DNA from: an uncultured delta proteobacterium
Lineage (GTDB): Bacteria > Desulfobacterota > Binatia > UBA9968
Assembly: GCA_963840855.1 (NCBI GenBank)
Contig: CAWJBB010000041.1
Span: 192,001 to 256,000 of the forward strand
Length of the DNA: 64,000 bases
Direction: 5' to 3'
How positions within the stretch are numbered: position 1 is the first letter of the stretch; each line of letters begins with the position of its first letter. The notes beneath the pieces were generated by a model, which did not search any database, was not told the origin of the DNA, and worked only from the letters and a program-made list of their open reading frames with translations. Positions 2,225 to 37,179 of this stretch are shown piece after piece. The position numbers were made by a program, and so were the translations under genes.

Positions 2225-2604
2225 TGGCCAATGAACTAATACTGATCATTGAGGACAACGAGAAAAACCGTAAGCTCATTCGTGATTTACTTCAGGTCAA
2301 GGGCTACCAGACAATTGAGAGCGAGACAGCGGAGGAGGGGCTAAGACTGGCCGAAGAAAGAAAACCGGCCCTCGTTCTGATGGATATCCAACTCTCTGGC
2401 ATGGACGGCATCGCTGCGATGAAACAGCTTAAAGCTACGCCCGCTACTCGAACTATACCGGTGATGGCGATCACGGCATCGGCCATGACCCACACCCGTG
2501 AATCGATGCTGGATGAAGGATTTGACGGCTATCAGACCAAGCCGTTTAACTTGACCGAATTTCTCGCCGATGTGGGCGAGTTGATCAGTCAAAGTCGCTC
2601 ATAG
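2224..2604 (+). CDS. Single-domain response regulator (DivK/CheY-like)
   Basis: IIEDN, LMDIQL and TKP receiver motifs; the ATG overlaps the kinase stop (TGATG). Confidence 0.92.
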   Translation: MANELILIIEDNEKNRKLIRDLLQVKGYQTIESETAEEGLRLAEERKPALVLMDIQLSGMDGIAAMKQLKATPATRTIPVMAITASAMTHTRESMLDEGFDGYQTKPFNLTEFLADVGELISQSRS

Positions 2605-2705
2605 TCAATTCACTTTGCACAACTTCGCCAGAACCATTGGCTCGCGTGTGTCTGAATCGGTATTCGATCCGGAGCAGAACCGCGCGAGGATCTTTTAACC
2701 CTGTA

Positions 2706-2770
2706 ATTGAACTGAATTCTCCATCGACTCAATCCTGCGAGATTTGTCCGTTGCGTCGATCAATTCAATC
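2706..2770 (+). repeat. ~66-bp palindromic element, copy A (upstream of SBP gene 1)
   Basis: ATTGAACTGA...TCAATTCAATC termini; conserved core TTCTCC..AATCCTG.GAGATTTG..GCGTCG. Confidence 0.85.
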
Positions 2771-2884
2771 TTGGGTTAAAAATCTGGTTTTTCCACTCGA
2801 CGGATATCTTTCGCCTTCTGTCGTAAATCCCACTTTCCTTTATCTGTATCCGCGTGATAGATAACGCTCGAAACGAGGTGCGCA
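2771..2884 (+). promoter_or_regulatory. Conserved leader shared by all four SBP paralogues
   Basis: TAAAAATCTGG..CCACTCGACG..TCGCCTTCTGTCGTAAAT..CCGCGTGATA recurs at ~6091-6194, ~8431-8541 and ~17187-17295. Confidence 0.7.
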
Positions 2885-3883
2885 ATGAAGAAAGCTGCGG
2901 TGCCATCAATCCTTGTTGCAGTGGTGTTGCTTGCTCTTGGGGTGATAGCCGAGGCGCAGCAGCCGAAGAAAGTCCCTCGGATAGGGTATCTAGCGACAAG
3001 CGATGCGGCTACTGAGTCCGCCCGTGCCGAGGCAATTCGGCTGGCTCTGCGTGAGCTTGGCTACATAGAAGGACAGAACATCGCCTTCGAGTACCGATAT
3101 GCGGAGGGGAAGCGCGATCGGTTCCCCGAGCTTGCAACCGAGCTCGTGCGTCTCAAGGTTGATGTCATCGTGGTAGCAGGAGGCGACCTACTGGTCCGGC
3201 CGGTCATGAACGCGACCAAGACGATTCCCATCGTTATGATAGGCGTTGGGGGCGATCCTGTCGAGGACGGCCTAGTTGAAAGCCTTGCCCGTCCCGGCGG
3301 CAACGTCACCGGTCTTACTCTCCTTTACAGAGAACTAAGCGGGAAGCGACTGGAGCTGCTCAAAGAAGCCGTCCCAAAAGTTGTCCGTGTCGCGGTTGTC
3401 TACGATCCGGGCAATCCGCGCAGTGTACGCGATGTGAAAGAGGTTCTTCCAGTCGCGGCGCATGCGCTGGGATTGACTGTTCGGTCTTGGGAGGTACGAG
3501 ATGCGGACGGTTTTGAAAAGGTATTCGCTGCGATAAACAAGGAGCGCCCGGATGGACTCTATGTGCCCGGTGGGGGCTCGATAATCCTTGCTAACCAAAA
3601 ACGGATCGCGGGCCTTGCGTTAAAGAGCCGGCTACCGTCGGTGTATAACAGCAGAGAATTTGTAGATGCCGGCGGGCTCATGTCCTACGGGCCGGACATC
3701 GCAGACAGCTACCGGCGCGTCGCGTATTACGTGGACAGGATTCTGAAGGGAGCCAAGCCTGCCGATCTGCCGGTGGAGCAGCCGACGAAGTTCGAGCTGG
3801 TGATAAATCTCAAGACGGCGAAGCATATCGGCCTGACGATTCCGCCGGAGGTGCTTGCGCGGGCGACCAAGTTGATCAAGTAA
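2885..3883 (+). CDS. ABC transporter substrate-binding protein (ABC_sub_bind family), paralogue 1
   Basis: Signal peptide ending AEA-QQP; motifs RIGYL, LARPGGNVTG, KRLELLKE, PADLPVEQPTKFELVINLKTAK. Confidence 0.93.
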   Translation: MKKAAVPSILVAVVLLALGVIAEAQQPKKVPRIGYLATSDAATESARAEAIRLALRELGYIEGQNIAFEYRYAEGKRDRFPELATELVRLKVDVIVVAGGDLLVRPVMNATKTIPIVMIGVGGDPVEDGLVESLARPGGNVTGLTLLYRELSGKRLELLKEAVPKVVRVAVVYDPGNPRSVRDVKEVLPVAAHALGLTVRSWEVRDADGFEKVFAAINKERPDGLYVPGGGSIILANQKRIAGLALKSRLPSVYNSREFVDAGGLMSYGPDIADSYRRVAYYVDRILKGAKPADLPVEQPTKFELVINLKTAKHIGLTIPPEVLARATKLIK

Positions 3884-4052
3884 ATTGGTGTCTTCCTCTG
3901 GAATCGAAAAGATAAAACGTGCTTACCCGCTGCGCATTCTACAGGTAGACTTATTAGTTCAGCGGGAACAAGTTGATTAACAAGGTGATTCACTTCTCTA
4001 TGATACCGCTATACGTAAAACTGCCCAAACCACCCGAGCAGGAGGAAAAGTC

Positions 4053-4505
4053 ATGGCCGTGAAAGTGCTTGAGCTACATCACCACGGAATCCGGGTAGGC
4101 CCCACACCCGAGCAGCTGAGCAAGGCCCTCACCTTTTACCGCGACGTGCTGGGACTGACTCCAGATCCCGGACGCCCAAAGATTCCGGGCATCCCGGGAT
4201 ACTGGATGGATTTGGGTCACACACAGATTCACCTGATGGGAGTTAGCGGTCCTTCCAAGTACGCAAAGGGAGAACGGCAGGATCCGACGCTGACCCATGT
4301 GGCACTGGCGGTGCCGGACGTCCAGGAGGCCAAGCGCGAGCTGGACCGGCTCGGCGTCAAATACTGGACGTTGGCCGGCGTAGTGGGGCCGCATATCGAA
4401 CAGATCTTCATGGATGACCCGTTCGGCAACATGATCGAGCTGCACCAAATCGGCACCTGTCGTTGCAACAGAGAGAGCGCTGAAGGAACTGAAACCGTTG
4501 ATTGA
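4053..4505 (+). CDS. VOC/glyoxalase family protein
   Basis: LHHHGIRV, QIHL, HVALAV and DPFGNMIELH motifs; GGAGG RBS. Confidence 0.88.
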   Translation: MAVKVLELHHHGIRVGPTPEQLSKALTFYRDVLGLTPDPGRPKIPGIPGYWMDLGHTQIHLMGVSGPSKYAKGERQDPTLTHVALAVPDVQEAKRELDRLGVKYWTLAGVVGPHIEQIFMDDPFGNMIELHQIGTCRCNRESAEGTETVD

Positions 4506-4696
4506 CCGGCTAACAAGCGGCTAGCGCAAACTGCGAGAAAAGTACGCCGTTGTCATATCAATCGGCGTGAGGTTCGAGGTCTGCCGGAGCGTGAGACAAA
4601 TCAAGCCTTCGCGTCACCCCATAGACCTTTTCGTTTATGTCCCGCTCCTCGCCATGAGGTATTCTAGGCAGTTTATTGAAGCAGGAGAGAAAAGCC

Positions 4697-6001
4697 ATGG
4701 CTTCAATGCCACGCAAGGTCGACGCCAACGCGCTCCGTGTGGCTATCGTCGGCGGCTCGATGGGCGGGTTAACGACGGCGTTGCTGCTTCGCAACCTCGG
4801 CCGCGATGTCGATGTGTTCGAGCGAGCAACCGGCGAGTTGACCGGGTTCGGAGCGGGGATCGTAGCGCACGAAGTGAGCCTTCGATACTTCGTGGAACGA
4901 ACGACGATTTCGCTCGACAACATGACCGTCCCGGTCCGTACTTACCGGCTTCTCGACGGGGCCGGTTCACTGCTGTGGGAGGAACCCGTCGCCTACCGTT
5001 TCGTCTCGTGGGGCAGCCTGTACCGGGCCCTTCTTCGCGAGTTCGGCCGCGAGCGCTATTTCCAGGGAGCGGCGCTCGTCGGGTTTAGCCAGGACGGACA
5101 TGGAGTTGACCTGCGATTCGCTAGCGGGGAGCAACTCCGGTACGACCTTCTCGTGCTCGCGGATGGCGTCCTCTCGACGGGCCGCCAACTGCTGTTTCCC
5201 GGCGTCGAACCCGTTTACGCTGGTTACGTGGCATGGCGAGGCACGGTCGCTGAACGAGACATCCCGGTTCGCGTGCTCGAACGAATTGACGACACGATCA
5301 CATACGCACTCATCCCGAACAGTCACATTCTTGTCTACCCGATCCCCGGCGCAGATGGCCGTGTAGACCGGGGCGACAGACGCTGGAACTTCGTGTGGTA
5401 TCGTAACGTCGATAAGGGAGCTACTTTCGACGAGCTGATGACCGATCGCGACGGCTCCCCGCATTCGGTCTCGCTGCGTCCAAGTCGTGTTCAGGACCGG
5501 TACGTGCGCGAACTCAAGGAACTCGCCGCCGCTGCGTTGCCGCACGAGATTGCCTCTATTGTCACAGTCACCGAACATCCGTTCATCCAGGCGATTATGG
5601 ACGTCGAGTCGCCCACTATGGCCATCGGTCGGGTCTGCCTCTTGGGGGACGCCGCGTTTGCGGTCCGACCGCACGCGGCGGCCGGCACTGCCAAGGCCGC
5701 CGAGAACGCATGGACCCTCGCTGAAGCGCTTGAGGCATTCGACGGCGATTTGCCCGGCACGCTCCAGATGTGGTCCGAGCATCAAACAGCGCTCGGCTCA
5801 GGCCTCATCGCGCGGACGCGCCACATCGGAGAAGGCTCACAGTTCCGCTGTGACTGGCGGCCGGGCGATCCGGGCCTAAGGTTCGGCCTCTACGAGCCTG
5901 GTGATTCGTCCATTTGGACTCGCGCGCCGCGCGCCGTCGTCCTTAGGACACCAAGTGCGCAATCTGGAGTGCGGGGTGGAAAAACTGATGGCTCGGATTA
6001 A
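4697..6001 (+). CDS. FAD-dependent monooxygenase (2,6-dihydroxypyridine hydroxylase-like)
   Basis: GGSMGG Rossmann motif, ADG, YAGYVAWRG, NFVWY, LLGDAAF..RPHAAAGTAKAA. Confidence 0.85.
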   Translation: MASMPRKVDANALRVAIVGGSMGGLTTALLLRNLGRDVDVFERATGELTGFGAGIVAHEVSLRYFVERTTISLDNMTVPVRTYRLLDGAGSLLWEEPVAYRFVSWGSLYRALLREFGRERYFQGAALVGFSQDGHGVDLRFASGEQLRYDLLVLADGVLSTGRQLLFPGVEPVYAGYVAWRGTVAERDIPVRVLERIDDTITYALIPNSHILVYPIPGADGRVDRGDRRWNFVWYRNVDKGATFDELMTDRDGSPHSVSLRPSRVQDRYVRELKELAAAALPHEIASIVTVTEHPFIQAIMDVESPTMAIGRVCLLGDAAFAVRPHAAAGTAKAAENAWTLAEALEAFDGDLPGTLQMWSEHQTALGSGLIARTRHIGEGSQFRCDWRPGDPGLRFGLYEPGDSSIWTRAPRAVVLRTPSAQSGVRGGKTDGSD

Positions 6002-6070
6002 CTCTGCTGGAACGCAAGTAAACAATCAGAGACCCATGTAGTATGCACTTAAATGCCGCATCTAACTGAC

Positions 6071-6090
6071 GCGTCGTTCAGTTGAATCTC
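6071..6090 (+). repeat. Palindromic element copy B (right half only, upstream of SBP gene 2)
   Basis: GCGTCGTTCAGTTGAATCTC followed by the conserved leader. Confidence 0.65.
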
Positions 6091-6194
6091 AGGCTAAAAA
6101 TCTGGGTTTCCCACTCAACGAATACTTTTCGCCTTCTGTCGTAAATGGCACTTTTCTCTGCTACCTTCCGCGTAATACGCAAATGGTGTCTGCA

Positions 6195-7190
6195 ATGAAA
6201 AAAGCTGGTGTTTTGTCAATCCTGTTCGTAGTGATTCTACTTGCTGTTGGAGTCATAGCCGAGGCGCAGCAGCCGAAGAAGGTTCCGCGGATTGGATATT
6301 TATCAAATACCGGTCCCGCTGGTGAATCCAATCGTTCCGAGGCAATTCGATCGGCTCTACGCGAGCGTGGCTATATAGAAGGACAGAACATCGTCACCGA
6401 GTACCGATATTCGGAGGGGAAGGTCGATCGGTACCCAGAGTTATTGGCCGAGCTGGTCCGTCTCAGCGTTGATATCATCGTGGTCGCAGGAGGGGCACCG
6501 TCGATCCGGGCGGCCATGAATGCGACAAAGACTATTCCCATCGTGATGATGGGCTCTGGGATCGATCCTGTGGAGGGAGGCCTGGTGAAAAACCTCGCCC
6601 GTCCCGGCGGCAACGTCACCGGCCTTACTCTCCTTTCCAGAGAGCTAGGCGGTAAGCGGCTGGAGCTGCTCAAAGAAGCTGTTCCCAAACTTTCTCGCGT
6701 CGCGGTTCTCTACGATCCGGCCAATCCGGGCAGCGTAATCGAGGTGAAGGAGGCTCTTCCGGTCGCGGCCCGTGCGCTGCGGTTGACTATTCAGCCGTGG
6801 GAGGTGCGAGCTGCGAAGGATTTCGAGGAGGTGTTCGCCGCGCTAAATAAGCAGCGTCCGGATGGACTCTACGTGCTTGCGGGCGGCCTAATGACTGCTA
6901 ACCAGAAACGGATCGTCGGCTTCGCGTTAAAGAACCGGTTGCCGTCGGTGTGCACCAACAGAGAAGCTGTAGATGCCGGCGGGCTCATGTATTACGGGGC
7001 GGACCTCGTGGACAGCTACCGGCGCGTCGCATATTACGTGGATAGAATCCTGAAGGGAGCCAAGCCCGCCGATCTGCCCGTCGAGCAGCCGACGAAGTTC
7101 GAGCTGGTGATCAATCTCAAAACCGCCAAGCAGATCGGTCTGACAATTCCGCCGGAGTTGCTAACCAGGGCGAACAAGTTGATCAAGTGA
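6195..7190 (+). CDS. ABC transporter substrate-binding protein, paralogue 2
   Basis: Same motifs as paralogue 1; the ATG of MKKAG aligns with the paralogue starts. Confidence 0.93.
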   Translation: MKKAGVLSILFVVILLAVGVIAEAQQPKKVPRIGYLSNTGPAGESNRSEAIRSALRERGYIEGQNIVTEYRYSEGKVDRYPELLAELVRLSVDIIVVAGGAPSIRAAMNATKTIPIVMMGSGIDPVEGGLVKNLARPGGNVTGLTLLSRELGGKRLELLKEAVPKLSRVAVLYDPANPGSVIEVKEALPVAARALRLTIQPWEVRAAKDFEEVFAALNKQRPDGLYVLAGGLMTANQKRIVGFALKNRLPSVCTNREAVDAGGLMYYGADLVDSYRRVAYYVDRILKGAKPADLPVEQPTKFELVINLKTAKQIGLTIPPELLTRANKLIK

Positions 7191-7207
7191 CCACGCGGCG
7201 ATGCCAA

Positions 7208-7278
7208 GATTGAACTGATTTCTCCGACGAACCAATCCTGGGCAACGTTCGATGCAAGGATCGTTGAATTGCAACTTG
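7208..7278 (+). repeat. Palindromic element copy C (downstream of SBP gene 2; right half degenerate)
   Basis: GATTGAACTGATTTCTCCGACGAACCAATCCTG begins 18 bp after the stop codon. Confidence 0.75.
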
Positions 7279-7321
7279 TATCGAAATACTCTCTTGGCGA
7301 GTACAAGATAGGAGTTTAGTG

Positions 7322-8313
7322 ATGGCGGAAACACGAGCAGCACTCAAAGCGGTAGACCGTCTGGAAATCACAACTCTGGTGGACAACACGATCGACGTGT
7401 TTCTACCCAGCACAAATGAGATTCGTCGACCCCAAGTACCAACAGAGCTACCGTGGGGAGAACGTACGTCGCTTATTTCTGAGCACGGCTACTCTGCTTT
7501 GGTCAGAGTCCACGCGGGTGACCGCTCGGCTAGCCTTCTATTCGACGCGGGTATCAGCACCACTGCGCTCATTCACAACATGGATGTGCTCGAAATAAAG
7601 CCACAAGAGTTACACAGCATTGTTCTGAGTCACGGCCATGTCGATCATACGCAAGGCTTGGTCGGGATGATCAAGCGGCTAGGGAAAATGCGTATGCCCA
7701 TCCTGTTGCACCCCGACGCTTTTTTGAATCGCAAGGTGATCCTGCCTGACAAGCATGAGCTTCACTCGCCCGCACCAAACCGTCACTTGTTAGAACAGGA
7801 AAATGTCGAGTTCGTCGAAGAGCGGCTGTTCCTATTTGCTCGAAGGGATGGTGCTGGTGACGGGGCAGATCCATCGCACAACCGAGTTTGAAAAAGGGTT
7901 TCCCCATTCACTACTCCGAGATCAATGGCGCATGGCAGTCCGATCCGTTAATTCACGATGACCAGGCTTTAGTGGTGAACGTGCGGGACAAAGGACTCGT
8001 CGTGATGACCGGCTGCGGCCACGCGGGTGCAATCAATTCCATTCGTTATGCCCAGAAACTTACCGGCGTCGACAAAGTCTACGCGTTACTGGGCGGGCTG
8101 CACCTGACCGGCGCTGTTTTTGAGCCGATCATTGCTCCAACCGTGAAGGAATTGAAGGCAATTGCTCCACGACTTCTGATGCCCGGACACTGTACGGGCT
8201 GGAAAGCGATTCACGCATTTGCGCGAGAGTTTCCAGAAGCCTTTGTCCAAGGCAGTGTGGGTACTCGCCTGGTCGTTGAGTGCGGCTCACAAACAGCGGG
8301 AGGATTGAGTTAA
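7322..8313 (+). CDS. MBL-fold metallo-hydrolase, split by a frameshift near 7825
   Basis: SEHG, LFDAG, SHGHVDH in the first ORF; DDQAL, TGCGHAG, GGLHL, PGHCTG in the second ORF. Confidence 0.82.
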
Positions 8314-8363
8314 GGTGTCACGGCATTCGCGCGGCAGCTCACTATTTGCGTTAGCCTCCTTCA

Positions 8364-8430
8364 GATCGAACTGTTTTCTCCTACAAACAAATCCTGTGAG
8401 ATTTGCCTGTAGCGTCGTTCAATTCAATCT
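8364..8430 (+). repeat. Palindromic element copy D (upstream of SBP gene 3)
   Basis: GATCGAACTG...GCGTCGTTCAATTCAATCT. Confidence 0.82.
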
Positions 8431-8541
8431 CAAGGTGGCCCTGGACTTCTTAATTGACGAATCCGTGTCGCCTTCCGCCGTAAATCACCTTTTCTTTATT
8501 ACCGTCCGCGTGCTTAGTAACGTCCCAGGACTGGGTGGGCA

Positions 8542-9536
8542 ATGAAAAAGCTGGTGTCTCGTCAATCCTGTTCGTAGTGATCCTACTTGCTGTTGGAATT
8601 ACAGCCGAGGCGCAGCAGCCGAAGCAGGTTCGTCGAATAGGGTATCTAACTGGCTCTTCCCCTTCTGCTGAGTCGGCACGCATCGAGGCATTCCGACAGG
8701 GTCTGCGCGAGCTTGGATACGTCGAGGGGAAAAACATTGTCATCGAGTTGCGGGGCGCGGAGGGAAAGCTCAATCGTCTCCCCGCGCTCGTGGCTGAATT
8801 GGTGCGTCTCAAGGTCGACGTAATCGTTACGGGAGGTCCAGCGGTAACCCGTGCTGTTAAGGAAGCAACTGCTACAATTCCCATTGTGATGACACAGGAT
8901 CCCGATCCTGTTGGAAGCGCGTTCGTCGCCAGCCTCGCACGACCCGGCGGCAATATTACCGGGTTGTCAACCCTTTCCCCAGAGATAACCGGAAAACGAC
9001 TGGAGCTTCTGAAGGAGATCGTTCCTAAGCTCTCCCGTGTGGCTGTCCTCGGGACTTCGACCAGACCGGGCACCGCACGGGAGTTAAAAGAAGTGGAACT
9101 CGCCGCAGGGGCGTTCGGAGTGGAGCTTCAATACCTAGACGTTCTTGATCCCAAGGATATTGAGACCGCATTCCGAGCGGCGAGCAAGGGGCGGGTTGAC
9201 GCAGTCCTTATGTTGGTGTCGGGCGGCGTCGTCGATGCTCATCGAACAACGATTGTCGAACTCGCGGTAAAGACCCGGCTCCCTGTGATATACGGCACGG
9301 GCGGGCGAGCATTTGTAGAAGCCGGTGGGCTGATGTTCTACGGCGTGAACGTCAACGACTTGGACCGGCGCGCGGCCACTTACGTAGACAAGATACTCAA
9401 AGGGACAAAGCCCGGCGACATTCCCGTCGAGCAGCCGAAAAAGTTCGAGTTCATCATCAATCTGAAGGCCGCCAAGCAGATCGGCCTGATGATTCCGCCG
9501 AACGTGCTGGCGCGGGCGGACAGGGTGATTCGATGA
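8542..9536 (+). CDS. ABC transporter substrate-binding protein, paralogue 3 (one A missing in the homopolymer after the ATG)
   Basis: ATGAAAAAGCT here versus ATGAAAAAAGCT in paralogue 2; otherwise the full family motif set is present. Confidence 0.88.
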
Positions 9537-9563
9537 TGAAAGAAGACCTACCGAGAGCGCCAG

Positions 9564-9604
9564 GATTGAACTGAATTCTCCGTTCAACCAATCCTGTGAG
9601 ATTT
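9564..9604 (+). repeat. Palindromic element copy E (left part, downstream of SBP gene 3)
   Basis: GATTGAACTGAATTCTCCGTTCAACCAATCCTGTGAGATTT. Confidence 0.8.
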
Positions 9605-9723
9605 AAGCGTACGCCGCCGCTTGCGGCCCAGGCCGAACCTATGATGCTCATGGGCGTAAAACACGTGCAGGTGAGGCGCGACCTTAAAAATCTACGGCCG
9701 CTTGCAACTGAAAGGAGTTATCG

Positions 9724-11130
9724 ATGCTTAGAGTTGAGCAGAATGATCGGTTAACACAGGTGGGGCCGGGAACGCCGCTGGGAGAGCTCATGCGGCGGTA
9801 CTGGCAGCCAATCGCCGTGGCTTCGGAACTAAAGGAGAATCCTACCAAGTCCATTAAGCTCCTGGGAGAATGTTTAGTGCTGTACAAAGACCGGCAAGGC
9901 CGGTTGGGCCTGATCGATGAGGCCTGCGCGCATCGGCGCGTCAACCTGGTTTACGGCATTCCGGAGAATGAGGGCCTGCGTTGCCCTTATCATGGTTGGC
10001 TGTTTGACCAGCAGGGACGGTGTCTGGAAATGCCCGCGGAGGCCCCGGAAAGCACGTTCAAAAACCGGATCAAGATGAAGGCATATCCCGTTCAGGAGCT
10101 GGGAGGATTGATCTTTGCGTACCTGGGGCCGGAGCCCATACCGTTGGTACCGCGCTGGTATCCATTCGTGCGCGATGACGTGATCCGTGATGTCGGGTGG
10201 GCTGTGGTGCCGTGCAATTGGTTGCAGATCATGGAAAATTCTCTCGACCCGGTGCACGGAGAATACCTGCATCGCTATTTCACCAACTACGTATTGGAGC
10301 GGTTGGGTTATATCGAGGATAAAGGCGATCTCCGCGGCCCGGGCGGCGCGCCCGGGAGAGCGCACGGGAAAACGCCGGCAGACTACTGGCGCACGAGCGC
10401 CAAGGTGGTGCACCATAACAAGGTCGGCTTCAACGTTTTCGAGCACGGCATTACCAAACACCGGCTGCTGCAGGGAGAATCCGAGGAGACTTCCCCCTCT
10501 TGGCGCATCGGCCATCCGATCCTGTTTCCCAACTTTGAGCACGGCGCCGGCGGCGGCGGGTTCCAAATCCGCGTCCCGATGAACGATACCAACACTTACT
10601 ATCTCTGGTACAACTGCCACCCCGCATCTAGGGAAGAGGCTGCGGCGCAGAGGCCTGAGGACATTCCGGTCTATCGGGTGCCTCTGCCGGGCGTCGACGA
10701 GCGCGGGATACCCGTATGGGAGCGGTTCGACAACAACAGCGGCCAGGACAACATGGCGTGGGTTTCTCAGGGCGAGCGCATGCAGCGCAACCTAGAGAAT
10801 CTCGGCGAATCGGACGCCGGCATTATCCTGTATCGGCGGCTGCTCAACGAGCAGATCCAGATCGTCGAGGATGGCGGCGAGCCGATGAATGTCTTCCGCG
10901 ACCCGGCCAAAAATCAATGCGTGACGTTCCCATACGAAGGGGCTGAGGGAGCCGGTGATGAAACCGGTGATGTGGTTTACGGCTATGCCCGCCGCACCGA
11001 GAGACTTTCCAGCGGCACTTCCGGTAAGTATAGCCCGATCAATCTGAAGCGGGCAGAGGAGGCGGGCTCGCCGCTGCCGAAGCCGGTGCCGCCGATTAGC
11101 GGGGGCATTACTGTAACCTCGCCCAAATAG
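9724..11130 (+). CDS. Rieske non-heme iron oxygenase alpha subunit (LigX / phthalate 4,5-dioxygenase-like)
   Basis: LTQVGPGTPLGELMRRYW; Rieske CAHR...CPYHGW; mononuclear iron site ENSLDPVHGEYLH. Confidence 0.9.
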   Translation: MLRVEQNDRLTQVGPGTPLGELMRRYWQPIAVASELKENPTKSIKLLGECLVLYKDRQGRLGLIDEACAHRRVNLVYGIPENEGLRCPYHGWLFDQQGRCLEMPAEAPESTFKNRIKMKAYPVQELGGLIFAYLGPEPIPLVPRWYPFVRDDVIRDVGWAVVPCNWLQIMENSLDPVHGEYLHRYFTNYVLERLGYIEDKGDLRGPGGAPGRAHGKTPADYWRTSAKVVHHNKVGFNVFEHGITKHRLLQGESEETSPSWRIGHPILFPNFEHGAGGGGFQIRVPMNDTNTYYLWYNCHPASREEAAAQRPEDIPVYRVPLPGVDERGIPVWERFDNNSGQDNMAWVSQGERMQRNLENLGESDAGIILYRRLLNEQIQIVEDGGEPMNVFRDPAKNQCVTFPYEGAEGAGDETGDVVYGYARRTERLSSGTSGKYSPINLKRAEEAGSPLPKPVPPISGGITVTSPK

Positions 11131-11222
11131 CCGCGCGTACAATCGGCTGTCGTTCGCCAACCCGCTTTAAAAAAGTCGGGTTGCCAACTGCATCGAATCC
11201 GCGCTCGCCACAGGAGACCGCC

Positions 11223-11370
11223 ATGGAAGAAACTGCTGCTGTTCCCGAAGCGCAAAGTTTCCAGCTCAAGACCCCTTGCTGCCAGAAGGGCGGACCAACA
11301 AAGTCCTCGCCCAGACGGATTCGCTCAAGCTCCGCATCAAGGTGTACGCCGAAGGTGGCGAAAATGGCTC
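11223..11370 (+). pseudogene. Truncated cupin-domain gene fragment
   Basis: FQLKTP / EGRTNKVLAQTDSLKLRIKVYAEGGEN is a cupin-like N-terminus, frameshifted and cut off before the His motif. Confidence 0.45.
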
Positions 11371-11562
11371 GCGTGCCCCTGAACTGATCGAACTGTTCAA
11401 GGCTTTTTCCGGCGGCGCGCCGCTGCCGCCGCAGTTAGAAATCAAAGCCACGCGCTCCGAAGAAAAACCCGCGCACAGAAATGGCCGGGCCCCACAAGGC
11501 GGCGCCCGCCATTCCCGACGGAAGATCTCAGTTGCTCTCGTAGCTAATCGGCCGTATCGAAA

Positions 11563-12201
11563 CTAGGACTTCTTCTTGGGCAGCATCTCGGCGGGTATTT
11601 GGCGCGGGCCGATACTCTCGTGGTATTTATTGGTCTCCAGATCATACCTGCCGTGAAGGTTGGACGGTATGCCGTCCTTGGCGCTGCGGATGATCACGGC
11701 AGCCGTTCGCTCGCCGACATTCACCTCGATGTGGATGTCGCCCGGCTTCGCCAGATGGATATCCCCGGCTGCGGCCACGTAATCGGCGGTCTTTCTCACT
11801 TCGGCGTACTCGGGTCTGGTTCCATCATCAACGCGTTCGTACTGCACAATCCGCTCGTGCCCGTCCAGCAGCCCATAGGCGGTATAGATGCGCCCATGAT
11901 CGTGCGCGTGCTTTGGCTCGGTCTGGCGCCGGCCGCCCTCATGGATCTGGCCGTTCACGACAAACCCATAGTCGGGATCTTCGTAGAAGAGCAGGTTACC
12001 GCCGCGGCGCTCGCCCGAGCTCGGAATCGAACTGGGAACCGGCCACTGTCGCGAGGCCTCCCGCACCTCCGGATCCGCCAGCAGCTCCGCCAGGATCGGC
12101 CGCAACGCGACCCAGCGTTTATCCACGTCGGGCTCGCGCGCGAATAGCTCCCGCGTCTTGCTGACGAATCGTTCCAAAGCATCCTGGCCTCTGGTTTCCA
12201 T
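11563..12201 (-). CDS. Hypothetical cupin-fold protein (cysteine dioxygenase-like)
   Basis: LLFYEDPDYGFVVN, HDHG...YG...GHE, PGDIH metal-ligand pattern. Confidence 0.7.
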   Translation of the reverse strand: METRGQDALERFVSKTRELFAREPDVDKRWVALRPILAELLADPEVREASRQWPVPSSIPSSGERRGGNLLFYEDPDYGFVVNGQIHEGGRRQTEPKHAHDHGRIYTAYGLLDGHERIVQYERVDDGTRPEYAEVRKTADYVAAAGDIHLAKPGDIHIEVNVGERTAAVIIRSAKDGIPSNLHGRYDLETNKYHESIGPRQIPAEMLPKKKS

Positions 12202-12230
12202 GACTGAATCTCCTCCCTGTTGAAGTGGAT

Positions 12231-13414
12231 CTAAGCCTGTGGCTGCCCGTTCGCTTGGCCGGCGTTAACCGCCGGGGCGTCGCTGACGTTATAGAAACGA
12301 GCGCAGTTATCCCACAGGATCTTCCGTTTGTCCTCGTCCGAAAACGGTAGCTTGAGAAAGCTCTCCGTGGCATGCGGATAGCGCGAGTCGCCGTGGGGAT
12401 AGTCGGTCGAATAAACCAGGTTGTCGTTGCCGAGAAAGTCGATCGTGTAGCGCGCCGGGGTTTCGTCCGGCTCGACCGACGCGACGCACTGGCGTTTGAA
12501 GTACGCGCTCGGCGCATGGTCAGCTCGCTCATGTCGAGATCACCTTCCAACTCGTAAGCTTCGTCGAGGCGCCACAAGAGCCACGGCAGCCACGAGCAGT
12601 TGGCCTCGAGAAACGCGACCTTCAAGGTCGGGTGCCGCTCGAGGATACCGCCGCCCAGAAAGCTGCCGACGCCGAACATCTGCCCGATGGGCTGGCCGTA
12701 GGCGCGCTGCATCCCCGACGGCGAGCCGAACCAGAACCTTGTCAGTTGCGGGACGCTCGATGCTGTCGCCTGATGAAGTCCGAGCGGGATCTGCAGCCCC
12801 TCCAATGCATCCCAGAGCGGCTCGTAGTACGTGTCGTGCCAGGCTTTGCCATTTACGATATTGGATCTAAGAAAGACCGCCTTGAAACCCAGCTCTTCGA
12901 CCACCCGGTGCGCTTCCGCGACCGCGTCGTTGATGTCATACACCGAGATCATGCCGGCGCCGAGCATACGCCGCGGATCGGTTTGGCAGAGGCCGTGGAG
13001 CCAGTCGTTGTACGCGCGCGCGATCGCCGCGGCAAAGCGGGCATCCGCGACGCGGGCGCCGCCGTCCGGCCCGACCAGCACGTTCAAGCCCCGGCTCGGG
13101 AACATCACCGCGACATCGAGTCCTTCCACATCCATCGCCTCGAGCTGGACCTCGCCGCTCCAACCGCGCGCGGCGTCGCCGCGGTACAGTGCCTGGTTGC
13201 GCTCGTAGTTACGGCCCTGCCGCGTCCTTCTCCGGATCGGCGGGCCATTGACATTCTGGTCCAGGAAGGTGATGCGTAGGTCGCGCACATTTTCGGACAA
13301 GACACCCCGCGGCGCGATCGCGCGGAACTCCGCGGCAATATAGCGCTCCCACAGATCGGGAGGCTCCATGACGTGCATGTCGCTGTCGAAAACTCTAAAT
13401 CCATTCTTGGCCAC
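12231..13414 (-). CDS. Amidohydrolase_2 family protein (frameshift near 12510)
   Basis: DSDMHVMEP, AYNDWL, FLEANCSWLP; the C-terminal STDYPH..ILWDN is in another frame. Confidence 0.82.
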
Positions 13415-13420
13415 TTAGTT

Positions 13421-13683
13421 TTACCCTCCTTTCCTGCGCGCTGCTGCAAACCAGTTCGCCAGATGCACCGGTTTGCGCGGTATCCGGCTTTGGGACCGCC
13501 TTTTTGCGAAACCAAATAGTCTTCGACATAGGCCAGAGGGTCCACCATGCGATGCTGCCAGGCGCCGACGAGTCGATCCATTTTCATCGCCTCCGGCAAG
13601 GTGAGATTCGCTCCCATCTGCACCGCGATCTTGGCGGAGGCGAGCGCCGCCTGTGCAAAGCCGCCGCAGCTCAATGATGCCAT
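13421..13683 (-). pseudogene. C-terminal remnant of a crotonase/enoyl-CoA hydratase-like gene
   Basis: ALASAKIAVQMG...YLVSQKGGP resembles crotonase-family C-termini; no N-terminal part is visible. Confidence 0.35.
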
Positions 13684-13945
13684 GCGTCGTTAAGTCGCGA
13701 AAAAGGTTCACGTCCTTTCCTCCTCCACTGCCTTGAACCTGATGGGTGACTGGTCCGGACAAGTCCAACACCGACTGATTGAAAACACAGGCGCGTAACT
13801 TAGAGATCCTGACAAGAGAGCTGAGCGAGAGGGAATAAAGCAATTTATTTCCTACAAAATATCGTTGCCTCTTGATTTGCTTCTAATCGGCGCCCGCGTC
13901 TTGGTGCCAGTCACGAGCATGGATGCCAGGCTCTGGCCGGCGGCC

Positions 13946-15106
13946 TCATTGCTTCAGCCGTGGGCAGAAGCGCAGGGCGTTCGCACTCAGGATGTTGGTC
14001 TTCGCGTGCTCGGAGATTTTCTGCTCCTTGATGTTGGGGACGCCGTCGGGCCAGCAGGTCCCCCCGTGGGGGTAATCCGTGGCGAAAAGAAATAAGTGGT
14101 CGCCTAGCGCCTCGACGGCGTATGCGATGTGCTCCTCGTCCGACTCGATCGAGCAGAAAAGTTGGCCCGAAGCCAGGATCTCCGAAGGCTTCCGCTTCAA
14201 AAACGGCGTCTCGTAGGAGCGCGGCTTGTAGCTCCCCTCGAATTTCTCGAACATGTAGGGCATCCAGCCGCCGAATGCTTCGAAGATGCCTATCCGCAGC
14301 TTCGGGAAGAGGTCGAAGACACCGCCGCCAATGAGACCCGCAAGGGCGTACTGGCCGCCCCAGCTGTGGTAGATCGAGTTCGGCGCATTGACCCAGGGGG
14401 TAAGGGGCGGGCGCTTGAACCCGCCATGGACCCACACAGGCAGATCGAGTTCTTGGGCCAACCCGAAGATTGGCCGCAGCCGCGGGTGGTCAAGCATGGC
14501 CCCGTCGGGGCAGGCCCGCGGGACGAACGGTCCCACGTAATGCCTGTCGTTCGTCGCCCAGTAGTTGATCTGGCTAAGCGTCTCCTCGATGTCGCGCAAG
14601 TTGGAGTTGCTGACCCAGCGCAGCCGTCCCTCGGATCCGGAACAGTAGCCGGACATGAAGCGATGGTACGCCCGCTGCAGCGCGCTCTCGAACCCGATGT
14701 CGTCCAACATGCAGTAGCCGTCGGACTGGCTGGAGAACATCACGCTGATTTCGATACCCGCCGTGGTCATGTCTTTCAGGCGCGGGGCGGGATTCCAATG
14801 GCAAGATGGATCGATCTCCCGGCCGGTATTGCTGACCTCGCGGCCGGGCCCGCCCGGGCGCTCCTCCCGCGGCGGCGCGTCAAAGGCGTCGTAGATGCCC
14901 ATTGGGTGGCCGGGCAGCCGCGGCCAGAGCACTTCGCCGAGGCCGACGTCACCGGTCCGCTTCTGGTTGGCTTTGACTGCCGCGCTGAAGCGCGCGTATT
15001 TGTCACGATACTCGGGGTCGATGTTGCCCTTGTAGGTCTTGTCGAGGGCCCAGTACTCGCGGATGTGGGAATCCGCGTCGATCACGATGTGGTCGTTGAA
15101 AGCCAT
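13946..15106 (-). CDS. Amidohydrolase_2 family protein
   Basis: IDADSHIRE, VWVHG, FEAFGGW, FATDYPH, ILSANA. Confidence 0.9.
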   Translation of the reverse strand: MAFNDHIVIDADSHIREYWALDKTYKGNIDPEYRDKYARFSAAVKANQKRTGDVGLGEVLWPRLPGHPMGIYDAFDAPPREERPGGPGREVSNTGREIDPSCHWNPAPRLKDMTTAGIEISVMFSSQSDGYCMLDDIGFESALQRAYHRFMSGYCSGSEGRLRWVSNSNLRDIEETLSQINYWATNDRHYVGPFVPRACPDGAMLDHPRLRPIFGLAQELDLPVWVHGGFKRPPLTPWVNAPNSIYHSWGGQYALAGLIGGGVFDLFPKLRIGIFEAFGGWMPYMFEKFEGSYKPRSYETPFLKRKPSEILASGQLFCSIESDEEHIAYAVEALGDHLFLFATDYPHGGTCWPDGVPNIKEQKISEHAKTNILSANALRFCPRLKQ

Positions 15107-15109
15107 AAG

Positions 15110-16297
15110 CTAACTCCGCTCTTTTCTGTCAGGACGCGGGATGCCGAGAAGCTGAAGAATGTTGTCTGCCTGCATCTTGCGCCGCTCGTCGGCCGGAACC
15201 CCACCCATCTGCCGGTCCAGCACCTCGCGCGAGCGCGGCCAGTACGTAACCACGTGGGGGAAGTCGCTGCCCCAGATAATGTGGTCCACCCCGACCTCGT
15301 GGCGCAGCTTGATGCCGATAGGGTCGTCGTAGAAGCCCCAGTAGGCATGCTCCTTGATGTACTCGCTGGGGCGCCGCTCAAGCCGACGGATGCCGAAGTG
15401 CCGCTCGGCCCAGAAGTGATTCTTGTCGTACTCGGCATCCATCTGTTCGAGGTAAAACGAGATCCAGCCGACGTTGTTCTCGGCCCAGTAGATTTTGAGC
15501 TTGGGGAAGCGGTTCCACACGCCGGCAAAGAGCATCTGGCAGGCCGTTAGCGACCCGCAGCGCGACGGGTTGGCGTGCCGGTAGAGCCGATTGATGAAAT
15601 CGTCTTCGCCGTTCCAGTCGACGGGCTGCTTCGGGTAGTCGAAGATTTTGCCGTCGCTGCCGAAAGATATCGTCGTATGGATTGTGAGCGGCACCTCAAG
15701 ATCGATGGCCGCGGCCCAGAAGCGATCGTCCTCCGGAGTGGGGTAAGGTTTACCGGAAGGGAAGCTTTTAAGAGCGGTGGCACGGATCCCGGTGCGCTTG
15801 GACCGCTCTAGCTCGGCAATCTTGGTGTCGATGTCGCCGGCGGGGAGCATCGCCACGCCGAAGAGTCGGTCCGGGAAAGCGGCGCAATAGTCGGCGAGGT
15901 AGTCGTTGTACGCCCGCACCATCGCGAGATATGCCTCCTGGTCCTTGACTCGCATGCCGTGGGTGGCTGACGTTCCCGGGAAGAGCAGCTCGGCGTCGAC
16001 GCCGTCCTGGTCCTGCTCGCGCACGCGCTGCTCGGGCGAGCCGGATCCGATGGCCGTTGCGTACTCGAATCCAACCATGGGATCGAAGTCTTCAGGCGTG
16101 TGGCCCGCGTAGCTGCCGGTGCCGCCGAAATACTGCGAGCCTTCGGCGGAGACGATGACTTCGCCGCCCGTGGCGAGCTTGACGCGCTTGGGAGTCAGGT
16201 CACGGAACTTTTTCGGAACGCGGTCGGTCCAGAAATCCGCGGGGACCTGCAGGTGGCTATCTCCCGATACCATGCGATAAGTGCGGACCAGATGCAT
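15110..16297 (-). CDS. Amidohydrolase_2 family protein
   Basis: SGDSHL, QDQDGVDAELLFP, AYNDYL, AENNVGW, WGSDFPH. Confidence 0.9.
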   Translation of the reverse strand: MHLVRTYRMVSGDSHLQVPADFWTDRVPKKFRDLTPKRVKLATGGEVIVSAEGSQYFGGTGSYAGHTPEDFDPMVGFEYATAIGSGSPEQRVREQDQDGVDAELLFPGTSATHGMRVKDQEAYLAMVRAYNDYLADYCAAFPDRLFGVAMLPAGDIDTKIAELERSKRTGIRATALKSFPSGKPYPTPEDDRFWAAAIDLEVPLTIHTTISFGSDGKIFDYPKQPVDWNGEDDFINRLYRHANPSRCGSLTACQMLFAGVWNRFPKLKIYWAENNVGWISFYLEQMDAEYDKNHFWAERHFGIRRLERRPSEYIKEHAYWGFYDDPIGIKLRHEVGVDHIIWGSDFPHVVTYWPRSREVLDRQMGGVPADERRKMQADNILQLLGIPRPDRKERS

Positions 16298-16458
16298 ACT
16301 CCTCGTAACGATAGCAGGAAGTTCCTTTTGAGGTCAGCGGCACGGGAAATCAGAATTTAGTGCCAGCTCGGGATCGAGAGCTCCCAATAAGGGAACTGGC
16401 CCCGCTCCCTTTCTACGGGCGCGAGAATATCCGATAAATCGGACGTCTGTCAAATAAT

Positions 16459-17019
16459 TTGCCGGTTGTTGCCGCAGCCCGCCGATCGGTAGGGTTCGAT
16501 CCACTGAAGTGGATGTACAACGAGGAGCGCCGCGGCTACGACTTCGTGGAGCAGGAGCTGCTCGAGCGGTCGATCGTCCCGTCCCGGCGAACGCCGAAGC
16601 GCTCCAGCTCGCCAAGGTCTCAAGCTCGACTTCGAGCCCATCAAGCAATGGGCGATCCAAGCCTCGATTACTGGAGCGAAGTGAACGGGGTGTATGTCCC
16701 GCGCTCCATCCTCGAAAACGCCGCCAAGATCGGAGACGGCGAACGGGTGTTCATTCTTTTTCCGAAGAACCATCTCGACAGCATCCTGACCAGTTCGGCG
16801 AAATCGGAAAAAACAGAACCGGTTCCTGAGGCTTCCGCCGCGATTCAGTGGCCGACGGAACCGCGCTCGGCGCTCGACAAAATCCGCGACGCAATCAAGG
16901 ATTTGGCTGGCGCGATCTCCAAAGACAAGCGCGCCGACACTCCGGCTGAACCGGAGAAGAAAGAGGCCAACGAAGGCGCGGTGCTCGTTCTCTCCGAAGA
17001 TGAGGAAAAGAGCGAGTGA
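16459..17019 (+). CDS. Hypothetical protein (start uncertain, possibly a fragment)
   Basis: Coding-like ORF with a charged C-terminus; no recognisable motif. Confidence 0.35.
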   Translation: MPVVAAARRSVGFDPLKWMYNEERRGYDFVEQELLERSIVPSRRTPKRSSSPRSQARLRAHQAMGDPSLDYWSEVNGVYVPRSILENAAKIGDGERVFILFPKNHLDSILTSSAKSEKTEPVPEASAAIQWPTEPRSALDKIRDAIKDLAGAISKDKRADTPAEPEKKEANEGAVLVLSEDEEKSE

Positions 17020-17120
17020 TCTAGGAAGAGGGGTGGATGTCGGCTGAGCGAGAACAGAAACAAGCGGTTATCGAACTGGCAGCATTGCACCGCACCGAGG
17101 GCGCCAGCGGTTAAACCTAC

Positions 17121-17186
17121 GATTGAACTGTATTCTCCTACGACCTAATCCTACAAGACGGGACTGAGGCGTCGATCAGTTCAATC
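17121..17186 (+). repeat. Palindromic element copy F (upstream of SBP gene 4)
   Basis: Perfect 10-bp terminal inverted repeat GATTGAACTG / CAGTTCAATC; 66 bp long. Confidence 0.88.
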
Positions 17187-17295
17187 TCAAGCTAAAAATC
17201 TGGTTTTTCCACTCGACGAATGCCTTTCGCCTTCTGTCGTAAATCTCCGTTTCCTCTAGTAAGGTCCGCGTGATACATAACGAACCGTGTGTGTA

Positions 17296-18282
17296 ATGAG
17301 GAAAGCTGCAGTCTTATCAATCTTGTTTGTGGTGGTACTGCTTGATGTTGCAGTCATAGCCGAGGCGCAGCCGCAGGCAAAGGTTTCTAAGATTGGGTGG
17401 CTCTCAGCCCGTCCCGCTTCAAACAGAATTGTCGGGCAAGAGGTACTCGTGCGCATGCTCCGTGATCTCGGCTATGTTGAAGGCAAGAACATCGCTTTCG
17501 AGTATCGATATGCGAATAATAAACTCGACCGGTTTCCCGCCCTGGCCGATGAGTTGGTTCGTCTTAAAGTTGACGTTCTCCTCACGCCTGGGACCCCTGG
17601 CGCCCTAGCCCTCAAGAACGCTACCAAAACGATCCCCATCGTTTTTACAGATGTGACTGATCCTGTTGCGGCTGGGCTGGTTGCTAGCTTAGCGCGGCCT
17701 GGGGGAAACATCACTGGGTTCAGCAGCATAGAGGCGGTGTTGGCGGGCAAACGGCTGGAGTTACTCAAGGAAGCCGTTCCCAAGATTTCACGCGTTGCCG
17801 TGTTGTGGAATCCGCATGATCCAAGCTCCGCGCAGCAATGGAAAGAAAGCCAACTGGCGGCACGAGAACTGGGTCTGCAACTTCACTCCATGGAGGTCAG
17901 CAGCGCCGATCAATTCGAGAGCGCGTTCAAGGAGGCAAATCAAGTCCGCAGCTCTGCGCTCTTCGTGGTATCGAGCGCGTTGGCCGTTGCTAATCAAAAA
18001 CGGATCGCGGACCTAGCGATAAAAAATCGGTTGCCGGCGATATACACTCGCGGAGATCTTGTTGACAGCGGTGGCTTGATGTCCTACGGACCCGACCAAG
18101 CCGAACGCTTCAGGCGTGTCGCGGTTATGGTCGACAAGATTCTCAAAGGAACCAAGCCCGCCGACATTCCTGTCGAACAACCGACGAAGTTTGAGTTCGT
18201 GATCAACTTAAAAACGGCGAAGCAGATCGGCCTGACGATCCCACCCAACGTGCTGGCGCGGGCCGGTAAGGTGATCAAATGA
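17296..18282 (+). CDS. ABC transporter substrate-binding protein, paralogue 4
   Basis: Signal peptide AEA-QP; LARPGGNITG, KRLELLKE, PVEQPTKFEFVINLKTAK. Confidence 0.93.
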   Translation: MRKAAVLSILFVVVLLDVAVIAEAQPQAKVSKIGWLSARPASNRIVGQEVLVRMLRDLGYVEGKNIAFEYRYANNKLDRFPALADELVRLKVDVLLTPGTPGALALKNATKTIPIVFTDVTDPVAAGLVASLARPGGNITGFSSIEAVLAGKRLELLKEAVPKISRVAVLWNPHDPSSAQQWKESQLAARELGLQLHSMEVSSADQFESAFKEANQVRSSALFVVSSALAVANQKRIADLAIKNRLPAIYTRGDLVDSGGLMSYGPDQAERFRRVAVMVDKILKGTKPADIPVEQPTKFEFVINLKTAKQIGLTIPPNVLARAGKVIK

Positions 18283-18306
18283 TCGAAGAAAACCCAGCAG
18301 CGATGC

Positions 18307-18378
18307 CAGGATTGAACTGATTTCTCCGACGACTCAATCCTGTGAGAATTGTCCGTTGCGTCGTTCAATTCAGTCCTG
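18307..18378 (+). repeat. Palindromic element copy G (downstream of SBP gene 4)
   Basis: CAGGATTGAACTGA...TCAATTCAGTCCTG (12 of 14 positions inverted-complementary); core nearly identical to copy A. Confidence 0.88.
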
Positions 18379-18625: not shown

Positions 18626-19625
18626 TGCTTATACGGTTGTTTCAGCAAACCCCAATAGGTTGTGTTTACCCATGAGCGGAAGTTTTTGCCAAATCCAGAG
18701 CACCTCGAATGCGGCCGTAGGCCGTGGACCGCTGTTGTGTTCCCAGTCCGAGCAAAGTCTGAAAAGCCGCCATGGGTTGGTTACGCCGATTATGGCGAAA
18801 AACGAACTCATCGAGGTAAACTTGGAGTTGCGCGCGGCTGACACCGTGGTAGGTGCCGATCAACCACTGCTGAAGGTTGCCGATAGCACGGTCGGCCAAG
18901 GGCACTGCCGATTTGGCTCCCTTGCGCAATTCGGTTGTCTTCGGCTGCGCCCGCGCGATGTGCCGATACCCAACTTTGTCCAAACCCGTGAAACTCTTCA
19001 GAGCATCGGTGTAAATCGTCGAGCCCGCAGCGATATGCTGCTGGATAAAGCAACTGAGCGTGGCTGCCTTAAAGTCTGGGATCACAGCCATTCGCAGTCG
19101 CCCCGACGCCTTGCCGCGTTTCTCAACGGCCACCAAGACAAGAGCGGCTCGACGCCCCTTAAGTTGACGACTGCCGCGCAAGCCCGCCTGGGGGCCGCCA
19201 ATCCAAGCTTCATCGATCTCCACTTCTCCACGCAGAGGCTCGCGTGCCACGTTGATCATCGCTCGGCGCAGCTTGTGGAGCATCATCCAGGCCGTTTCGT
19301 AGCGGCGCAATTCCAGCTGACGCTGGAGCAAGAGCGCCGAAATCCCACGTTTATCCGTTGTCATCAAGTACGCCGCCCAAAACCACAACAACGATACTCT
19401 CGTATTGTGGAGAATGGTCCCCGATGTCAGAGACACCTGATGTCGGCACCCCGCGCACTGCCAGAGTCGCGTCATGACATACGCATGCTGGTTCCCACAG
19501 CGAGGACACTTAAATCCATCAGGCCAACGACAGGCGGCCAGATACTGCTGACAGGCCTCTTCGCTGGCGAACTGCCGCTGGAATCTCGCGAACTGGGAAC
19601 GGAGGCCAGCGCTATACCCGTACAT
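18626..19625 (-). mobile_element. IS1595-family insertion sequence; transposase ORF 18666-19625 with a damaged 5' end
   Basis: N-terminal Zn ribbon (WPDGFKCPRCG, WQCAGCRHQVSLTSGT); DDE-type motifs VEIDEAWIGG, IYTD, YLDEFVFRHNRR. Confidence 0.88.
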
Positions 19626-26982: not shown

Positions 26983-27081
<99 letters not shown>

Positions 27082-36968: not shown

Positions 36969-37115
36969 GGGCCTTTTCCCTTTCCTCGCTTGTACAGGTT
37001 CTGTCCAGGTTCGATAGCCAACTATAACCAAAAACAAACAAGTGAGAGAGTATGAAAGAGCGATGTTTACTGTTGGAAAATGGCGGTGGTGTGCTATAGA
37101 TTGAGTGTTCGCAGA

Positions 37116-37179
<64 letters not shown>

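Follow-up and report, generated by a model that had tools for sequence, protein, structure and literature searches.

What is the ~66-bp palindromic repeat that recurs, in a single orientation, around substrate-binding protein (SBP) genes in an uncultured delta proteobacterium of the Binatia? We analyzed this element in a stretch of 64,000 nt (positions 192,001 to 256,000 of contig CAWJBB010000041.1, assembly GCA_963840855.1; hereafter the window) and followed it into other genomes and metagenomes. An original prediction, made from the window alone, had proposed that the repeats are recombination or mobilization sites, loosely like integron attC sites, that turn SBP genes into amplifiable cassettes. 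We find two different sites, A and B, in place of one palindrome, and we consider it likely that they are the double-stranded, dif/lox-type core sites of a dedicated module-exchange system served by a single-subunit recombinase family, that of the Xer-like protein P0001. Throughout, G000 is the source genome, C-numbers are contigs (the window lies on C41), other G-numbers are genomes of the same family, and L-numbers are loci found through their sites.

The repeat consists of two 30-bp sites

A profile hidden Markov model (HMM) built on five window copies gave 111 genome matches at E<=10, and a second round yielded 36 near-full copies. Twenty-two of these were exactly 66 nt as extracted, and the copies of that length parse as 12-6-12-6-12-6-12. 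Rather than the single palindrome first proposed, the repeat comprises two 30-bp sites, each with a 12-bp arm, a 6-bp spacer and another 12-bp arm: site A (arms a1 and a2) has the spacer TTCTCC and site B (arms a3 and a4) the spacer GCGTCG, and the two are either joined by 6 bp (A6B) or stand alone. Conserved inverted repeats (GATTGAACTGAW / WTCAGTTCAATC) form the outer arms, and the inner arms are variable, degenerate versions of the outer-arm motif. Homology among solo B sites begins at element position 37.

Scoring both strands of the window with position weight matrices (PWMs) recovered the seven co-oriented copies at their predicted positions and no further copy (Table 1). Two details of the prediction needed correction: the copy at 18310 ends in CAATTCAGTC, and the copy at 7208 is not a full one, its site A being present and its right half unrecognizable. 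As predicted, all four SBP genes, which belong to PF04392, have a copy upstream (B ends 105-115 bp before the start), and three have a second copy behind them (A lies 17-28 bp past the stop). The predicted order of element, SBP, element, metallo-beta-lactamase-fold hydrolase, element, SBP and element was also correct, except that the hydrolase, taken for one gene, is split into two open reading frames (ORFs). A scan of window positions 1-40000 against Rfam, judged by E-value, gave no match at the element.

Genome-wide, at a threshold of at least 20 bits, we found 70 A and 54 B, against 0-1 of each in shuffled controls (three column-shuffled matrices per site). The working set of 70 A and 55 B contained 29 joined pairs, while 41/70 A and 26/55 B stood alone or with a degenerate partner; many sites lay away from SBP genes. 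Co-oriented clusters occupied 14 contigs and ~270 kb, or 3.8% of the genome, and single sites lay on two more contigs.

Among the pairs of neighboring sites counted, the order was A-B 215 times (199 adjacent, 16 distant) and B..A 106 times, versus 43 A..A and 18 B..B, indicating that two module types alternate mostly but not strictly. With the pattern used, a sigma-70 promoter belonging to the leaders themselves was unsupported (5/182, against up to 6 in shuffles).

The sites recur in related genomes

We searched 185,579 species genomes with a pattern that fixed only the outer arms and left the spacers free. It returned 25 stretches at 24 loci, and left- and right-position spacers were never mixed among them. 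Seventeen of the 24 loci, in 12 records, carried the same spacers or near variants. These records were titled Candidatus Binatia or Deltaproteobacteria, with some bins assigned to Pyrinomonadaceae, Blastocatellia or Verrucomicrobiia; the latter occurrences may reflect transfer or mis-binning. The seven other matches (Bacteroidetes, Chloroflexi and others) had unrelated spacers and no A or B score and were dropped; at L022, L024, L027 and L043, in Bacteroidetes and Chloroflexi, palindromes with the same 11-bp outer arms as the element and unrelated interiors lay inside short tandem repeats.

Metagenomes contributed at least 129 stretches. The genome and metagenome sets may overlap, and pooled analyses were de-duplicated by sequence. 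Across 140 analyzed loci we counted 202 A and 182 B, with mixed orientation in none of the 49 multi-site loci. An exact 17-mer of site A was present in 53/89 other family genomes (0 for the reversed control) and in 2/5 and 0/28 genomes of the order's two other families.

Some homology breakpoints between arrays fall within the sites

If modules had been exchanged at the sites, homologous blocks should end there, as the original prediction had anticipated. Indeed, 9/40 ends of recent blocks (>=92% identical and >=400 bp) fell within a site in both partners, where 3.3% was expected from the share of bases that sites cover (binomial p 5e-6, the ends not being independent). Among non-SBP blocks of at least 75% identity, 33/275 ends did so, and several off-site ends resembled insertion sequence (IS) edges or domain swaps. 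Individual pairs placed the breaks more closely: between L080 and L105, 2.1 kb match at 98% up to and including arm a1, and the sequences diverge from a2 on; the module common to C46 and C50 extends from a4 to position 18 of A; C46 and C75 are alike over 2 kb leading up to B but have different a4 arms; and a stretch of 2352 bp that is 99.96% identical between C69 and C85 ends at B. When pairs were pooled, positions 1 and 12 of a1 followed the upstream flank in 91% and 70% of cases (background 59% and 53%) and a2 did not, while a3 tracked the upstream and not the downstream flank and a4 gave no information. In the sequences compared, the breakpoints thus show the pattern of exchange within the 6-bp spacers.

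A Xer-like recombinase gene lies between the sites in relatives

A co-occurring tyrosine recombinase, which the original prediction had suggested looking for, was found in relatives between the same two sites. P0001 is a 301-aa Xer-like tyrosine recombinase whose gene replaces the 6-bp linker between A and B. Three site-found loci (L021, L057 and L116) carry a XerC/D-like gene; B is linked to the 3' end of the gene in all three cases and A to the 5' end in one, and L021 shows the order SBP-A-recombinase-B-SBP. Site A lies ~85 bp before the recombinase ATG, with its spacer 72-76 nt upstream. In a search that used the gene only (90 family genomes, 5 candidates scored per genome), A preceded the ATG in 7/8 copies with a visible 5' end, and B clearly overlapped the stop codon in 6/10 copies with a visible 3' end, was degenerate in one and was missing in three. 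The recombinase module had differing flanks on each side across genomes. At G003:C8 57423-60456 and G002:C23 76891-79954, two tandem recombinase modules are split by a B-gene-attC-A module.

Full-length copies occurred in G000, G002 (2), G003 (2), G017 and G391, and fragments in G256, G016, G357, G007 and G018. Five copies are intact, with dN/dS of 0.06-0.11 in all 10 pairs; the recombinase is under purifying selection. The catalytic set R154-K178-H246-R249-H272-Y281 is present in P0001, and the motifs recur in 100-117 of 120 homologues, fragments included. At E<=1e-40 there were 225 homologous clusters, with 63-93% identity among the 120 matches listed, and the next full-length relatives were 55% and 42% identical. 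A class-wide protein search found P0001 in only 2/401 genomes at E<=1e-70, and no occurrence in viral contigs was confirmed.

P0001 fell below the cut-offs for XerC, XerD, XerA, XerS and IntI, scoring 204 bits against TIGR02224 (cut-off 335), 203 against TIGR02225 (cut-off 330) and 69.7 against the IntI model TIGR02249 (cut-off 265). It shares 34% and 31% identity with the XerC and XerD encoded by the source genome, its alignment lacks the IntI-specific insertion, and it has the R..W of the XerD helix that we take to be the recognition helix. Other tyrosine recombinases near arrays (21 PF00589 matches) were rejected as the array enzyme, since from their sequences we judged them phage-type, RIT-type or IS91-associated. 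One of them, immediately downstream of B on C35, is part of an IS91-like insertion that cuts a4 in two. Such an element, with an integrase-like gene, interrupts site B in the GTTC of a4 at C35:34649-32232 of G000, at L031 and at L033.

Cargo is diverse, and the element would explain the SBP expansion in part at most

The idea that the element is specific to SBP genes and explains their expansion was not supported by the genome-wide counts. An SBP C-terminus precedes only 31/70 A and an SBP N-terminus follows only 25/55 B in the source genome, and of 97 SBP loci, both sites are present at 15, a single one at 27 and neither at 55. A scan of 194 of the 217 non-SBP array ORFs, with 23 short ORFs left out, identified GAF histidine kinases, SRAP peptidases, DNA-ligase fragments, hydrolases, methyltransferases and IS genes. 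On a quick tree of 53 full-length SBPs, site-bearing and siteless proteins were interleaved, the site label changing 14 times versus 17.5 when shuffled (26/500 shuffles were as low). Given the siteless majority and the interleaved tree, the element would explain at most part of the SBP expansion.

SBP genes also form tandem arrays that lack the element, on C6, C30, C32, C34, C87 and other contigs of G000. Short heptamer-like tandem repeats lie around their signal-peptide region, and SBP C-terminus remnants stand directly before many SBP starts; these heptamer-repeat arrays are a second route of SBP amplification. We also observed a ~750-bp insertion in SBP tails, around the stop codon, and in several cases immediately ahead of site A (G000 C10 ~3070-3830, C27 ~169620-170380 and C87; L033, L108 and L146). 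Its 3' end, with a domain V/VI-like portion, resembles that of a group II intron.

Proposed mechanism

The central claim of the original prediction, that the repeats are recombination sites, is supported by the co-oriented, clustered arrays, the homology breakpoints within sites and the recombinase bracketed by the same sites. We propose that a Xer-type tetramer would synapse two A or two B sites and exchange strands across the spacer. Because the two sites carry different fixed spacers on the same arm motif, A should join only A and B only B, by analogy with the spacer-matching rule of the enzyme family; the fixed spacers and the crossovers at them are consistent with such recombination. Because all sites of an array are co-oriented, the outcome would be excision, integration or two-step exchange and not inversion. 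Outer modules would take the form B-cargo-A, holding SBP genes, kinases and enzymes, and inner modules the form A-x-B, where x is the recombinase gene or 6 bp, making the 66-mer a putative empty inner module. Two independent reactions could then excise, insert or swap both kinds of module, the recombinase gene included, probably through circular intermediates, and site A upstream of that gene may provide autoregulation. We infer from sequence that P0001 catalyzes exchange at A and B. The arrays of the source genome are probably frozen or dependent on an enzyme supplied in trans, because the only copy found there is a pseudogene.

Alternative explanations

The source genome also holds integron components. 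It encodes a genuine integron integrase (C1:45987-46880, beside a triplet of RIT-like recombinases) and a partial second one (C21:55430-55939), and ordinary attC clusters lie on C4, C13, C21, C26 and C58. These true attC arrays lack A and B, and attC sites are rare in the A/B arrays. A reading of the arrays as clusters of attC sites lacking integrases (CALINs) was dropped, as 4/30 attC-like matches fell in arrays, 3 of them adjoining A, and 2/30 did so in a stricter scan. The element as the sole content of integron cassettes was likewise rejected, an R''-like AAC standing at the matching offset after B in only 2/206 cases.

The 66-mer could instead act as a single-stranded hairpin, with a1:a4 and a2:a3 stems and a mismatched 6x6 bubble, that undergoes one strand exchange by P0001 or the genome's IntI in the manner of attC or the CTX-phage attP. 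This appears unlikely to us, even though both strands fold at about -10 kcal/mol, AAC...GTT triplets lie within the arms, the genome encodes an IntI above the TIGR02249 cut-off and real attC sites adjoin A. Polymorphic outer-stem pairs varied independently in 150 unique 66-mers (8:59, p 0.45; 12:55, p 0.09), and real elements folded no better than left/right chimeras (-9.7 vs -9.6; -10.4 vs -10.3). Moreover, the halves persist singly and also on either side of the recombinase at a distance of 950 bp, sites are absent both from the surroundings of intI on C1 and from the attC arrays of the five contigs named above, the larger arrays show no replication-strand bias (4 vs 5), and P0001 lacks the IntI insertion. 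Crossover at the G/TT of a GTTRRRY at the site's 3' end was not observed either; the arms switch at the 6-bp spacers. The likeness to attC and REPIN elements drawn at the outset is therefore weak, given the outer stem without covariation, the recombinase without an IntI-type insertion and the absence of RAYT/Y1 enzymes among the 194 array proteins scanned. That absence, with the clustering and polarity of the copies, also led us to reject a repetitive extragenic palindrome (REP)/REPIN or miniature inverted-repeat transposable element (MITE) class for the element.

A related proposal is that A-recombinase-B is a small integrative or transposable element with ends at the outer edges, that the 66-mer is its MITE-like derivative, and that both target positions downstream of attC or SBP gene ends. 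It would account for autonomous and non-autonomous forms with common ends, for the variety of R' boxes before A and, as possible empty targets, for three collapsed a1-spacer-a4 sites; the fixed 11-bp distance from the attC R' also recalls the 5-bp targeting of pdif sites that PMC10132070 describes for IS1202-family elements. We nevertheless find it improbable: no target duplication was apparent in the flanks, inspected by eye only, left and right spacers are unmixed in the spacer-free set, and slippage between a2 and a4, which are direct repeats, is another potential source of the collapsed sites. In addition, a1 goes with the upstream and a2 with the downstream flank, which places the crossover inside the site. 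Least probable is that the sites are substrates of host XerCD (true pdif), or only operators or REP-like repeats that multiplied along with tandem duplication of SBP genes, and that the recombinase is ordinary cargo. The 12-6-12 geometry, the XerD-like arm core, the many sites flanking SBP genes and the failure to see P0001 in most genomes with sites would fit this. However, action by host XerCD is unlikely because the family's dif is a different, conserved 28-mer, found in 67/90 family genomes and nearly always single-copy, whose XerD arm matches the element arm at 6/11 positions; in addition, A and B stand at fixed offsets from the recombinase gene, B overlapping its stop codon, and unrelated cargo is bounded by sites too. 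The chromosomal dif candidate of G000 lies at C46:134199-134226, with an array 30 kb away, and three dif-like repeats on C79 proved to be duplicated upstream regions of paralogous genes.

Several results count against module exchange by a dedicated recombinase. Sites outnumber the enzyme, with site A in 53/89 genomes and the full-length recombinase in 5/90 (fragments in ~5 more); B is missing from 3/10 recombinase copies and A from 1/8; and the G000 copy, on C93, is broken by frameshifts and a stop and has no B. Alternation is interrupted by 61 A..A or B..B neighbors, and for 31/40 ends of recent blocks a site is lacking in one or both partners. No circle or junction was seen, but no run contained more than 0.24 of the sequence words, and four runs of relatives' contigs, which gave paralogue chimeras only, were uninformative on this point. 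The inner pairs 19:48, 26:41 and 27:40 covary (z 2.7-3.4) as a hairpin would have it, although co-inherited inner modules would be expected to produce this as well. Finally, a GTTRRRY box stands exactly 11 bp upstream of A in 33/117 non-SBP A, and 20/55 such box cases end a confident attC, versus 2.6% of control GTT sites. The exchange model does not account for this attC-A spacing: IntI may drop cassettes at a target immediately before A, the element may have travelled within an integron cassette in the past, or it may target attC.

Features of the window

Table 1. Sites, modules and neighboring features of the array in the window (site scores in PWM bits).
Feature	Position	Strand	Evidence or remark
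GAF histidine kinase (5' end outside window) and response regulator	17..2604	+	non-SBP module, flanked by B (C41:190966, outside window) and by A at 2705
Weak attC-like stretch, uncertain	2628..2700	+	R'-like box TTTAACC starts 11 bp before site A; score 5.0, confident level 7
Site A (a1-TTCTCC-a2)	2705..2734	+	49.1
Site B (a3-GCGTCG-a4), 6 bp after A	2741..2770	+	50.2
SBP1, ABC_sub_bind, no A after it	2885..3883	+	PF04392
Solo site B	6059..6088	+	33.1
SBP2, B-SBP-A module, likely start 6195	6183..7190	+	PF04392
Site A, partner B unrecognizable	7208..7237	+	48.4; best B score -10.6
Metallo-beta-lactamase-fold hydrolase, frameshifted, two ORFs	7319..8313	+	ORFs and family match
Joined A (8364-8393), 6 bp, B (8400-8429)	8364..8429	+	39.7 and 46.0
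SBP3	8535..9536	+	PF04392; open from GTG 8535, ATG at family's usual position (8542) out of frame
Site A (9564-9593), linker and first 5 bp of a3; remaining B lost	9564..9604	+	42.2
GTTAAAC box 11 bp before site A	17110..17116	+	no confident attC upstream (score 5.5)
Joined A (17121-17150), 6 bp, B (17157-17186)	17121..17186	+	45.4 and 37.8
SBP4, B-SBP-A module, likely start 17296	17287..18282	+	PF04392
Joined A (18310-18339), 6 bp, B (18346-18375), final site of array	18310..18375	+	49.0 and 41.0

The array continues just upstream of the window on the same contig, with further sites at C41:188401 and C41:190930. In two arrays (C41:191081 and C85:93529), the leader of the multi-GAF kinase module contains an additional, highly degenerate A-like copy ~85 bp downstream of B. 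Directly after the last site, an IS1595-family transposase gene occupies window positions 18666-19625, with terminal repeats near 18551 and 19626. Farther on, a tRNA-Ser gene (26983-27072) has a 69-bp duplicate 10 kb away (37111-37179), with an integrase fragment near 27500-28100; together, these mark an integrated island beside the array.

Comparison with known systems

The closest likeness is to the dif modules of Acinetobacter, in which ~30-bp arm-6-arm sites bound gene modules of two alternating types, with matching-spacer exchange, co-oriented excision of module pairs and replacement by two crossovers (PMC13141974, PMC10132070). Recombination at pdif requires matching spacers (PMC13141974). 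Unlike pdif, our system encodes its own single recombinase between the sites in place of host XerCD, its arms are unlike the host dif, its arrays are chromosomal, and the empty 6-bp inner module is the norm. It also uses only two fixed spacers family-wide, which appears to leave no room for inversions; in pdif, by contrast, the spacers vary and inversions do take place. In contrast to the Rep_3/OrfX plasmid carriage of pdif, the arrays are embedded in chromosomal contigs that reach 333 kb, in some cases close to tRNA genes, no plasmid database search having been made.

Like integrons and CALINs, as described in PMC4889954, the system forms polar arrays of genes plus sites, mostly without a nearby recombinase, and L116 and G017 resemble intI-attI in having a recombinase gene, then a site, then cassettes. 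Unlike integrons, it has a recombinase that scores 70 bits against the 265 of TIGR02249 and lacks the IntI insertion, fixed-length sites with no covarying outer stem, crossover points in both halves, a recombinase gene co-oriented with the array, and modules that can be multi-gene. It shares one Xer-like protein with a cognate site beside its own gene with the single-recombinase systems XerS/difSL, XerH/difH and XerA, which are named in bioRxiv 10.1101/542381. These differ in that ours has dozens of cargo-bounding sites per genome, beside an intact, separate XerC/XerD/dif.

Engineered recombinase-mediated cassette exchange (RMCE) with heterospecific lox or FRT sites uses two non-interacting spacers, as we propose here for a natural system. 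The R64 shufflon (Rci/sfx) pairs one conserved with one variable arm around a conserved spacer, is served by one tyrosine recombinase and inverts segments within one gene; the A and B sites, unlike those of the shufflon, are all co-oriented, and whole genes are exchanged. Overall, the system functions in the manner of dif modules and has the layout of an integron, yet it departs from each of them in defining features. Full-text literature searches, with most subscription papers outside their coverage, found no description of the element or the recombinase.

We regard as evenly balanced the broader proposal that this is a gene-cassette platform apart from integrons: a natural form of RMCE with two orthogonal spacers and a self-mobile Xer-like recombinase, occupying ~4% of some Binatia-type genomes, capturing integron cassettes and belonging to a wider undescribed class in other uncultured phyla. 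If true, it would join integrons and the dif modules of Acinetobacter as a third way of shuffling gene modules by site-specific recombination, and two natural sites that one recombinase uses without cross-reaction would also be of value in engineering. The claim can be tested directly because its components (an enzyme of 301 aa and two sites of 30 bp) are small and completely defined. The bacteria concerned live in soil, and current integron-finding tools would not flag the system. For these bacteria, it offers a mechanism for part of the turnover of accessory genes, including 42/97 orphan SBP loci in the source genome.

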